The notes under the pieces: generated by a model
Seen by the model: only the letters and a program-made list of their open reading frames with translations
The model's database searches: none
What the model was told of the DNA's origin: nothing
Translations under genes and position numbers: made by a program
DNA from: an uncultured Candidatus Saccharimonas sp.
Lineage (GTDB): Bacteria > Patescibacteriota > Saccharimonadia > Saccharimonadales > OMJO01
Direction: 5' to 3'
Length of the DNA: 64,000 nt
Assembly: GCA_943353165.1 (NCBI GenBank)
Contig: CALRAM010000001.1
Span: 173,803-237,802 of the forward strand
Shown: piece after piece, positions 29,243 to 30,760 of the stretch
Layout: every line of letters starts with the position of its first letter
Position numbering within the stretch: position 1 is the first letter of the stretch

Positions 29243-29300
29243 TTAGTAAAACTATATTTAAAATGTGCTAAAATAGGATTGTTAACAATTTAATATCAAG

Positions 29301-29502
29301 AGTGCAGTTAGAGTCCTAGCTCCGTAACCTGCCAGCAACCTGCCGTATTGGAATATGAAAGGTGGAATATAGAAATTGGTTTTATAACCCAAATTCAAAC
29401 TTCCATCTACTAACTTCTAAGCCGTAAGGTGCTAAGCCTAGCCCGCAAGGGAAGGATACGAAGATGATTTTTTATCCTTTCTACGCCAGAAAGGATATTT
29501 TT
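29301..29502 (+). promoter_or_regulatory. Riboswitch-like 5' leader with alternative antiterminator / terminator-RBS-sequestering hairpins
   Basis: Terminator: ATCCTTTC (29474-81) pairs with GAAAGGAT (29489-96), followed by ATTTTT and then ATG 29503. The 3' arm contains the only SD-like AAAGGA. The upstream GAAGGATA (29451-58) can pair instead with TATCCTT (29472-78). The upstream ~150 nt folds into nested helices: 29307-11/29410-14, 29361-67/29401-07, and a CCC-GCAA-GGG hairpin. Confidence 0.55.
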
Positions 29503-29763
29503 ATGTCAGAGAAAATAATACCAACTAATAATTACAGCCCAGAATTGGAACCTAAAGTAGAGATCCAAACAGGTTTTGTTCCGACAGATCAATCACAGAA
29601 TGAATTTTTAGGCCGGTATGTCGATTGTACGTTCGAAGAACTATTAGAAGCAAACCGACGAGTCCGAACTGGACCAGGCTGGGTCTCGGCTCGGGGTCGC
29701 TGTGCTAGCGCCATTGCCAGCGAATTTTACGCCAGAGGAATAGAACATCTTTTAGAAGAATAG
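29503..29763 (+). CDS. Hypothetical 86-aa protein
   Basis: In-frame Met 14 of track ORF 29464..29763. The upstream 39 nt form the leader terminator, so ATG 29503 is the plausible start. No recognisable motif. Confidence 0.45.
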   Translation: MSEKIIPTNNYSPELEPKVEIQTGFVPTDQSQNEFLGRYVDCTFEELLEANRRVRTGPGWVSARGRCASAIASEFYARGIEHLLEE

Positions 29764-29767
29764 CACC

Positions 29768-29983
29768 CTAAAATAGCTGACCTTGGCCAGGAAGTATGAA
29801 AGTTTCTGTATCGTACATATCTGCAAATTCTTTCAGGTTTCTGTCTGTGTTTTCTGTATCGGGCCCTATTTCCGTGTCAATGTTTTTCGGCATTATAACG
29901 TTTGCTTCGGCTTCTGACAAAACGTACTTTTCTGGAAAAACTGCTTCCAATATTTCATAATTAGACATTAGTCTTTTCCCCAT
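29768..29983 (-). CDS. Hypothetical acidic 71-aa protein
   Basis: ORF only. Co-oriented with, and 42 nt downstream of, the WhiB-like gene. Confidence 0.35.
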   Translation of the reverse strand: MGKRLMSNYEILEAVFPEKYVLSEAEANVIMPKNIDTEIGPDTENTDRNLKEFADMYDTETFILPGQGQLF

Positions 29984-30025
29984 AAATTATATTGTACACG
30001 AATAATCAGACAACTTTTTCTTTTT

Positions 30026-30760
30026 TTAGTAAGGCAATTGGGTGTTTGAAGTAGTATTTGAAGTTATGTTTTTTGTTTTTCGCTTGCGCCGCCTATCTGC
30101 CTCGTTTGTTCCGCCCCATATTCCTTGTATATTGTCGTTATTTAATGCAAACTCTTCGCATTGAACTCTAACTTCACAGTTACTGCATATCACTGCTACG
30201 GCATTAGATATCCATCTAGATGGGGGGAAGAAAAGATTTACATCCATACCTTTACACGCAGCTTTGCCGACAAACTCAGAAATCTGCGGGCCTTTCATCT
30301 GATAATCTCGTTTGTTAGAGCTATTAGGACCAAAATTAATTTCATTTAAGTGATTCTCTGTTCTGTATCGCTTGTCTTCACGACTAATAGCAATGTTGCA
30401 AAAATTTAGCAAATCTTTTTGGGGCAATAACAAATTATAGGAGCCTGCATCTGTCTGTTGTTGCACTATACGCATTAACAAGTTAATGTCTTTTACGTCA
30501 TTTATGGTATTCAATTTTAGCCATTTTCCGTCTAGAGAATCTAGAGATTTTAGCTTTTCTAATAGATTTTCTATTCCCTCAAAATCTATGCGGTTTTCTT
30601 CGGAATGATTTATTTCAAGCGGTTCTAGTAGATCATCCGACACGATAACCAGCTCCATGCCTTCATCCAATTCATCGGTCAAACCAAAATGAACTGGAGC
30701 ATCTTCTAGGTTTTCGATAATATCCAAATGGTACGAATTAATTGTATTTTCTGATGACAT
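30026..30760 (-). CDS. WhiB-like (Wbl) Fe-S transcription factor domain fused to a ~170-aa acidic N-terminal extension
   Basis: The C-terminal ~70 aa carry four Cys (C..x23..CSNCEVRVQC), then the GIWGG turn motif and a basic tail RRRKRKTK. That is the Wbl signature order. Confidence 0.7.
   Translation of the reverse strand: MSSENTINSYHLDIIENLEDAPVHFGLTDELDEGMELVIVSDDLLEPLEINHSEENRIDFEGIENLLEKLKSLDSLDGKWLKLNTINDVKDINLLMRIVQQQTDAGSYNLLLPQKDLLNFCNIAISREDKRYRTENHLNEINFGPNSSNKRDYQMKGPQISEFVGKAACKGMDVNLFFPPSRWISNAVAVICSNCEVRVQCEEFALNNDNIQGIWGGTNEADRRRKRKTKNITSNTTSNTQLPY

Follow-up and report, generated by a model that had tools for sequence, protein, structure and literature searches.

The 64,000-nt stretch of DNA analysed here (the window) comes from an uncultured Candidatus Saccharimonas sp. 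(assembly GCA_943353165.1, contig CALRAM010000001.1, positions 173,803 to 237,802 of the forward strand). On its plus strand, a leader at 29285-29502 precedes a gene for an 86-aa protein. We consider it likely that this leader is a riboswitch of the SAM-I (S-box) class, which senses S-adenosylmethionine (SAM), that it diverged within the Saccharibacteria from a metK-type leader, and that it places the 86-aa gene under SAM-off control. As a whole, the leader consists of an aptamer followed by two mutually exclusive hairpins, an antiterminator and a terminator that also sequesters the ribosome-binding site. An earlier reading of the letters without database searches (the sequence-only reading) had proposed this layout of aptamer plus expression platform, including the sequestration, and in this it was borne out. 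It had left the class unnamed, and an Rfam scan with E-value thresholds supplied the name SAM-I/S-box. The riboswitch class and its mechanism are already textbook knowledge; this copy is a lineage variant, with a sub-threshold score, no G.A pairs in its kink-turn, an expanded P3 and an orphan target.

The SAM-I match and covariation in the leader

The Rfam scan, which the sequence-only reading had suggested, returned a sub-threshold, full-length match to RF00162 (SAM, SAM-I/S-box). The full model, positions 1-108, aligned at 29290-29462 and scored 31.7 bits, where the gathering score is 44.4. The E-value was 2.6e-5 in a local scan and 0.0036 when the whole 64-kb window was searched with all 4227 Rfam families. 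At gathering thresholds the whole window yielded three tRNAs only, and the SAM match emerged with E-value thresholds. SAM-I remained the best model after Rfam clan competition. The consensus was matched exactly by AUCAAGAG in J1/2, by GCAACC and GGUGCUAA at the base of P3, and by GGAUA / GAUA in the 3' strand of P1. The ligand pocket is present in full (J1/2 A-U-C-A-A-G-A-G, P3 G-C-A-A-C-C / G-G-U-G-C, P1 A-U / A-U) and is invariant in 14 related leaders; J1/2, the P3 base and the top of P1 hold the SAM-contacting or pocket-lining residues of known SAM-I structures (PDB 2GIS). Because of the Rfam match and the homology to Saccharibacteria metK leaders described below, the leader was assigned to SAM-I and is not a new or unassignable riboswitch.

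The sequence-only reading had suggested that covariation be examined through orthologs of the 86-aa protein. That route failed: the leader-bearing copies of the protein are near-identical, and more distant homologues have no SAM-I match. The SAM-I helices could nevertheless be examined in the 14 related leaders. Plain MAFFT of the trimmed leaders misaligned P4 and P1. In its place, each leader was divided into fields of fixed width, with invariant motifs as anchors and N as padding, and MAFFT left this alignment ungapped. Under the SAM-I scheme including the pseudoknot, 88.5% of the cells were paired, compared with 77.5% in shuffles, and 20 of the 33 pairs had changed on both sides. The covariation score was 0.403 versus 0.175 in shuffles, and none of the 500 shuffles scored that high. 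When the partners were slid by 1-3 columns, pairing fell to 30-45% (maximum 44.5%). Helices P2a, P2b and P4 were 100% paired, the first two with compensatory changes, and in P1 the three innermost pairs were invariant and the next one covaried. C29437-G29454 was replaced by U-A in nine relatives, again a compensatory change. For the pseudoknot, 98% of the cells were paired, and three of its four pairs had changed on both sides (CGAG/CUCG in the leader L230, CUGG/CCAG in L231). Two hallmarks of SAM-I are thus found in this leader, the four-way junction P1-P2-P3-P4 with covariation and the pseudoknot that joins the P2 loop to J3/4. Pairing reached 91.9% in an alignment of 46 sequences made with a model. 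The covariance model built from the 14-leader alignment (R1) also retrieves ordinary SAM-I riboswitches of other phyla.

Several elements listed by the sequence-only reading find a place in this structure. The hairpin CCC-GCAA-GGG (29442-29451) is real and corresponds to P4, but GCC-GUAA-GGU, taken for a second GNRA-capped hairpin, is the 3' strand of P3. The helix 29361-29367/29401-29407 is part of the P3 expansion, which is predicted to form a long interrupted hairpin (-26.9 kcal/mol). The two arms of another proposed helix, 29307-29311/29410-29414, are complementary, yet they conflict with the covarying P2, and this helix had to be given up. The direct repeat ACCTGCC-N4-ACCTGCC is present (29327-29333 and 29338-29344), and it is simply the 3' strand of P2a beside the 5' strand of P3. 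That reading had also pointed to fragments resembling M-box and cobalamin motifs while judging both consensuses unsatisfied. The judgement was correct, and both candidates were rejected: a local scan of 451 nt returned neither family at E up to 10, nor did the scan of the whole window at E up to 0.05.

Expression platform and kinship with metK leaders

The segment TATCCTTTC at 29473-29481 has a perfect complement, GAAAGGATA, at 29489-29497 (that is, UAUCCUUUC against GAAAGGAUA). The sequence-only reading had this segment pair in two ways, which holds, although its start at 29472 was one base off. The stem that it described, followed by a U-tract abutting ATG 29503, also exists, but with 10 bp according to the terminator scan rather than 8 (Table 1). 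As it had noticed, the sole Shine-Dalgarno (SD)-like element, AAAGGA at 29490-29495, lies inside the 3' arm of this stem. The alternative upstream partner that it named, GAAGGATA at 29451-29458, is the core of a slightly longer arm, GGAAGGAUA, which raises the antiterminator to 9 bp. The antiterminator competes both with P1 and with the terminator, as expected of a SAM-I expression platform.

The terminator and antiterminator hairpins differ little in energy (-11.4 and -10.9 kcal/mol), and the terminator carries no substitution between the window and L001, a related locus with the same leader and gene. The 221-nt leader is more stable than its shuffles (z -2.4; 1 of 200 shuffles equally good). 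For a transcript ending at 29482 (29282-29482), the minimum free energy (MFE) structure comprises P2, P3, P4 and seven of the nine antiterminator pairs (29452-29458 with 29473-29479), and P1 is absent. With P1-P4 enforced in the folding, the terminator forms. The constrained energies, which include no ligand or tertiary terms, are -51.3 kcal/mol for the ON state and -47.7 kcal/mol for the OFF state, so a ligand-stabilised aptamer could tip the balance.

The switch is most likely SAM-off and acts on both transcription and translation. Transcription would start a few bases past the extended -10 promoter at 29266-29274. With SAM bound, the four-way junction (P1-P4 with the P2-loop/J3-4 pseudoknot) would hold 29450-29462 in P4, J4/1 and P1, and 29473-29482 would be free to pair with 29488-29497. 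The intrinsic terminator would then form, the SD would be buried, and the 86-aa gene would be off; because the SD sits in the 3' arm of the terminator, this state would also block translation. At low SAM, P1 would fail and 29450-29458 would pair with 29473-29481, and this antiterminator would let the polymerase read through with the SD free, so that the protein could be made. On this view, this copy would bind SAM despite its non-canonical kink-turn. The riboswitch predicts expression of the 86-aa protein when SAM is low, and on the same grounds the protein may have a role in low-SAM physiology.

In relatives, homologous leaders precede metK. The leader L149 stands directly before a 319-aa metK and has the upstream string, P2 geometry, pseudoknot, P4 and platform in common with the window. 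With L149 MetK as the query, further Saccharibacteria metK leaders were retrieved (L223, L226, L228, L230 and L231). In these and in L149, the promoter, GTTAACAATTTAAT, the aptamer and the platform ATCCTTTC...GA(A/G)AGGAT-U-tract align with those of the window. The likeness covers an extended -10 about 20 nt before P1, GTTAACAATTTAAT in most leaders, the P2 geometry, a CUAG-type pseudoknot, P4 as CCCGCAAGGG, and a ATCCTTTC/GAAAGGAT terminator with the SD in its 3' arm and a U-tract abutting the ATG. L149 also has a related P3 insert of about 90 nt (similarity to the window insert z 3.8), and L230 has the exact P3 base of the window without the insert, its short P3 being of the form UGCUAAAAGUAA, and an A at kink-turn position 1b. 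The metK leaders differ from the window leader in their target, in that most of them retain G.A at 1b.1n, and in a P3 as short as 10 nt (L226) or as long as 90 nt (L149). A tblastn search of the 64-kb window found no metK and no remnant of one. In the collection of papers searched, SAM riboswitches of Saccharibacteria were not the subject of any paper.

The sequence TGnTAnnnT occurs at an equal distance from P1 in the metK leaders L149, L223, L226 and L228. Judged from the promoter sequence, the transcription start site would lie at about 29280-29283, upstream of the aptamer. Between the extended -10 and P1 we observed the 14-mer GTTAACAATTTAAT (L149 6338-6351, L226 1360-1373, L230 1053-1066; for the window see Table 1). 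It is almost invariant across the Saccharibacteria SAM-I leaders, although their MetKs are only about 75-85% identical to that of L149. This conservation exceeds what the 5' flank of P1 would need, and the 14-mer could be an operator or an initial-transcript signal.

Compared with SAM-I/S-box riboswitches in general (RF00162; Bacillus subtilis yitJ, Thermoanaerobacter tengcongensis metF), the window leader has the same P1-P4 four-way junction, J1/2 AUCAAGAG, P3 base GCAACC/GGUGC, J4/1-P1 GAU, pseudoknot between the P2 loop and J3/4, antiterminator using the P1 3' strand and intrinsic terminator, and the same SAM-off logic is predicted here. It differs in its sub-gathering score, the lack of a tandem G.A kink-turn, the 80-nt P3 expansion, a terminator that doubles as SD sequestrator abutting the start codon, and the orphan 86-aa target. 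The SAM-I/IV and SAM-IV families (clan CL00012) have a SAM-I-like binding core, and the clan tolerates loss of the P2 kink-turn. In those families P4 and the pseudoknot lie 3' of P1, whereas in the window P4 lies inside the junction and the pseudoknot is of the SAM-I type.

Table 1. Positions of the leader parts and adjoining genes in the window
Feature	Position	Strand	Details
Extended -10 promoter TGcTAAAAT	29266..29274	+	TG 29266-67, hexamer 29269-74; read from sequence
Conserved leader motif GTTAACAATTTAAT	29281..29294	+	overlaps P1 5' end; near-invariant in window, L149, L226, L230, L231, L135
P1 5' strand UUAAUAUC	29290..29297	+	pairs with 29455-62: inner 4 bp UAUC/GAUA and 2 outer A-U (Rfam alignment)
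J1/2 AAGA and P2 arm	29298..29333	+	G29302-C29333; P2a 29304-07/29329-32; P2b 29311-13/29320-22; loop UCCUAG 29314-19
Internal loop at kink-turn position in P2	5' UUA 29308-10, 3' CGUAAC 29323-28	+	
Pseudoknot 5' strand CUAG	29316..29319	+	pairs with CUAG 29438-41 in J3/4
P3	29334..29433	+	base AGCA-A-CC-UGC (29334-43) with GUA-A-GG-UGCU (29424-33); 80-nt expansion hairpin 29344-29423
J3/4 to J4/1	29434..29454	+	J3/4 AAG, C29437-G29454, pseudoknot 3' strand 29438-41, P4 CCC-GCAA-GGG 29442-51, J4/1 AA
P1 3' strand GAUACGAA	29455..29462	+	doubles as part of antiterminator 5' arm
Antiterminator	29450..29481	+	GGAAGGAUA (29450-58) with UAUCCUUUC (29473-81), 9 bp including one G.U; excludes P4/P1 and terminator
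Intrinsic terminator	29473..29502	+	10-bp stem 29473-82/29488-97, loop ACGCC, UUUUU 29498-502, then ATG 29503 (terminator scan)
86-aa protein gene	29503..29763	+	N-terminal ~26 aa disordered, lineage-specific; C-terminal helical domain, motif NEF..R...EEL...GWVSARGR..A...EF
Convergent 71-aa open reading frame (66 aa in public assemblies)	29768..29983	-	travels with the riboswitch gene in the cassette
244-aa protein	30026-30760	-	C-terminal WhiB domain (Pfam E 2.5e-16), long acidic N-terminal extension; adjoins cassette

Departures from the consensus and competing explanations

Several points weigh against a functional SAM-I riboswitch. The SAM-I score lies 12.7 bits under the Rfam gathering threshold, and P1 has only four contiguous pairs plus two outer ones. 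The alignment of the 14 leaders favours the SAM-I scheme, on which it was built by hand with fixed-width fields and anchors at invariant motifs. The MFE structure of the full-length leader has the terminator regardless of ligand, and the control must therefore be kinetic, as in other S-box leaders. No link between the 86-aa gene and SAM or methionine is known, so the gene association typical of SAM-I is lacking at the window copy, and homologues of the protein elsewhere (33-65% identity, about 38 clusters) have no leader. The kink-turn (K-turn) departs furthest from the standard. In place of a 3-nt bulge with G.A and A.G pairs, the window retains the asymmetric loop UUA / CGUAAC, in which 1b.1n is A29326.A29310 and 2b.2n is A29327.U29309. 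PMC3651934 reports that in the T. tengcongensis SAM-I riboswitch A1n substitutions, or disruption of 1b.1n, abolish SAM binding. In model systems, a change of G to inosine at either G.A position blocks the ion-induced folding of an isolated K-turn (PMC3651934, PMC4316175).

Scores in the leader set put the first of these points in context. Rfam SAM-I scores span 60.6 to 34.9 bits, the lowest being that of the L149 metK leader. L207 (42.3) and L153 (41.9), for which no downstream metK was identified, are also under 44.4 bits. Since these leaders score below it as well, the gathering threshold misses this lineage, and the sub-threshold score of the window is a lineage property combined with an insertion penalty and no argument against membership by descent. 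Annotation that relies on the threshold misses such leaders in Patescibacteria, a group in which regulation is almost unstudied.

Departures of the kink-turn are not confined to the window either. The metK leaders L230, L144 and L182 also have no canonical G.A pairs, which argues that the lineage tolerates their loss. Their loops, all upstream of metK, read CCA/UAAA in L230 (1067-1110), UGA/AACAAAAAAAG in L144 (minus strand, around 2226-2052) and GUU/UUUAGAC in L182 (minus strand, 2475-2301). According to PMC3651934, G2nA, G3nU and the double change G2nU,G3nU are tolerated in the T. tengcongensis riboswitch, and the double variant still binds SAM; the non-bulged strand of the window, UUA, is this double variant. 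PMC4316175 adds that a pk-turn, which has no K-turn element, can substitute for the K-turn in SAM-I. A change of G1b to A is not reported in the text consulted from these two K-turn studies (PMC3651934 and PMC4316175). Natural SAM-I copies without canonical G.A pairs, some of them before metK, form a test set for the K-turn requirement of the fold.

The expanded P3 was compared with metagenomic sequences by a pattern scan for a SAM-I core with a 65-95-nt P3 insert, which gave at least 120 matches (L103-L222). SAM-I helices were present in about 97 among the 120 matches listed, so long P3 hairpins are common in metagenomic SAM-I and not special to this locus. P3 behaves as a hypervariable expansion segment. 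Many of the long inserts among the matches listed are near-perfect hairpins of short repeats (L114, L127, L149, L170).

The strongest competitor of a working SAM-I switch is a relic. The leader would then descend from a SAM-I metK leader, would have lost SAM binding together with the kink-turn G.A pairs, and would now be constitutive, with either a leaky terminator or permanent antitermination. We regard this as unlikely, and it keeps its share of probability chiefly because of the kink-turn change: A.A at 1b.1n and A.U at 2b.2n recall the T. tengcongensis riboswitch, where disruption of 1b.1n abolishes binding (PMC3651934). The regulated gene is moreover unrelated to SAM metabolism, and the cassette described below looks recently acquired, which leaves little time for decay to show. 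Against decay, the ligand-core strings, pseudoknot, P4, antiterminator and terminator are all intact and unchanged between strains, whereas the P3 insert and the linker vary; the L230 metK leader has an equal A at 1b and an even smaller loop; and replacement of the K-turn by a pk-turn is functional (PMC4316175). A change of ligand, for instance to S-adenosylhomocysteine or another adenosyl or sulfur metabolite that matches the non-metK target, would suit the unusual regulated gene, the altered kink-turn and the large P3 expansion near the binding pocket. It appears a good deal less probable than a relic: J1/2, the P3 base (AGCA-A-CC / GG-UGCU) and the top of P1 (AUC/GAU), all of which line the pocket in known SAM-I structures (PDB 2GIS), match the consensus and the metK leaders exactly, and no substitution points to a new ligand.

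Two further explanations discard the SAM-I reading altogether. The hairpin 29473-29497 is the first strong terminator past the stop codon (29242) of the upstream Pif1 helicase gene and might terminate that gene, the remainder being non-functional spacer. This is very improbable, as L001 and L002 have the identical promoter-leader-gene unit behind a different upstream gene, the leader owns a conserved extended -10 promoter, and the spacer has no counterpart at the closest Pif1 orthologues. We give next to no probability to an M-box, a cobalamin-like aptamer or an entirely new class, since short resemblances of strings seen by eye are all that speak for it and the SAM-I model accounts for every helix, with covariation. 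A SAM-I riboswitch with SAM-off control thus remains the reading we prefer.

The 86-aa protein, its cassette and the neighbouring genes

AlphaFold2 predicts residues 27-84 of the 86-aa protein as a conserved helical hairpin domain, with a predicted local distance difference test score of 73 overall and of 85-93 over residues 31-80 (means of 10-residue blocks). The start at ATG 29503, chosen by the sequence-only reading, is right. In the related copy L006, one nucleotide is deleted from the T-run 29469-29473, and this deletion would shift the frame of the alternative open reading frame (ORF) starting at ATG 29464. No Pfam, NCBIfam, PHROG or PADLOC family was found for the protein, which gave only an insignificant methyltransferase-profile match (E 0.057), and no fold match was found in the PDB. 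These results agree with the earlier statement that the gene is neither a transporter nor a known enzyme. It belongs to a small protein family of about 38 clusters, present in several bacterial groups, for which the riboswitch is a first functional hint (induction at low SAM). The leader-bearing copies are 97-100% identical, and all seven substitutions relative to L001 fall within the first 93 nt of the gene. Among the more distant homologues, some lie 37 nt behind a GGDEF gene and others stand in different contexts.

Homologues of 76 aa (L011, L012, L093-L096) always follow the GGDEF gene by 36-37 nt. The conserved block around them runs DUF2177, DUF1295 (PEMT/ICMT-like methyltransferase fold), GGDEF, the 76-aa gene, HAD hydrolase (DUF3267 in L011 and L012) and DUF2779. 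Homologues of 103 aa precede TerB-like genes and an Eco57I-type enzyme (L097, L098). Near the start of the 86-aa gene, ATACCAACTAATAATTACAGCCCAGA (29518-29543) resembles the first 25 nt of a metK coding sequence, ATGCCAACCTATAAAACAGCCGAGA (L223 1501-1525), which could hint that the N-terminal extension of the ORF came from a metK start; the similarity is not significant (z 2.8; 6 of 300 shuffles as high; one of six comparisons). A 12-nt repeat, TTCTACGCCAGA at 29479-29490 in the terminator loop region and TTTTACGCCAGA at 29725-29736 near the 3' end of the coding sequence, is probably due to chance.

The window and L001 become homologous at 29264, immediately before the promoter; farther upstream L001 has a different gene. 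The shared cassette, 29264-30025 (L001 520-1282), contains the promoter, the riboswitch, the 86-aa gene and a convergent 71-aa ORF. It is about 2.5% divergent, compared with 12.2% for the adjacent WhiB-like gene, which suggests that the cassette was recently exchanged or shared. Promoter, aptamer core and terminator differ from L001 by one change in 149 nt, against six in 90 nt for the P3 insert and linker (Fisher p 0.012); we counted this difference as support for selection on the leader core. We searched 80 Pif1 loci of related species with a regular expression and with the covariance model and found no riboswitch, the cassette being absent. The closest Pif1 orthologues have neither such a spacer nor such an insert. 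An affiliation of the window with Candidatus Saccharimonas / Saccharibacteria (Patescibacteria) is also indicated by the neighbouring Pif1 helicase. The cassette is not flanked by repeats of the kind expected for a mobile element.

It is possible, and we put it forward tentatively, that a complete metK-type unit of promoter, SAM-I riboswitch and terminator was re-used in the Saccharimonas lineage within this small, recently exchanged cassette and placed an orphan protein with a GWVSARGR motif under SAM control. If so, the 86-aa protein would newly join the low-SAM response of an epibiont unable to make methionine, and A.A at kink-turn position 1b.1n would be compatible with a functional SAM-I aptamer in nature. 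The unit looks portable, in that promoter, sensor and terminator would have moved together.

At L231 1-2160, on a Saccharibacteria contig of 1.09 Mb, a SAM-I leader and metK come after a Pif1 helicase that shares 50% identity with that of the window. This gene order parallels Pif1, leader and 86-aa gene in the window and was seen in none of the 80 closer Pif1 loci; the parallel may be a coincidence. The convergent 71-aa ORF had no match in Pfam, NCBIfam, PHROGs or PADLOC. It adjoins the riboswitch gene in every locus examined that includes the downstream flank, and promoter-like sites for it lie at 29920-29892 and 30013-29986.

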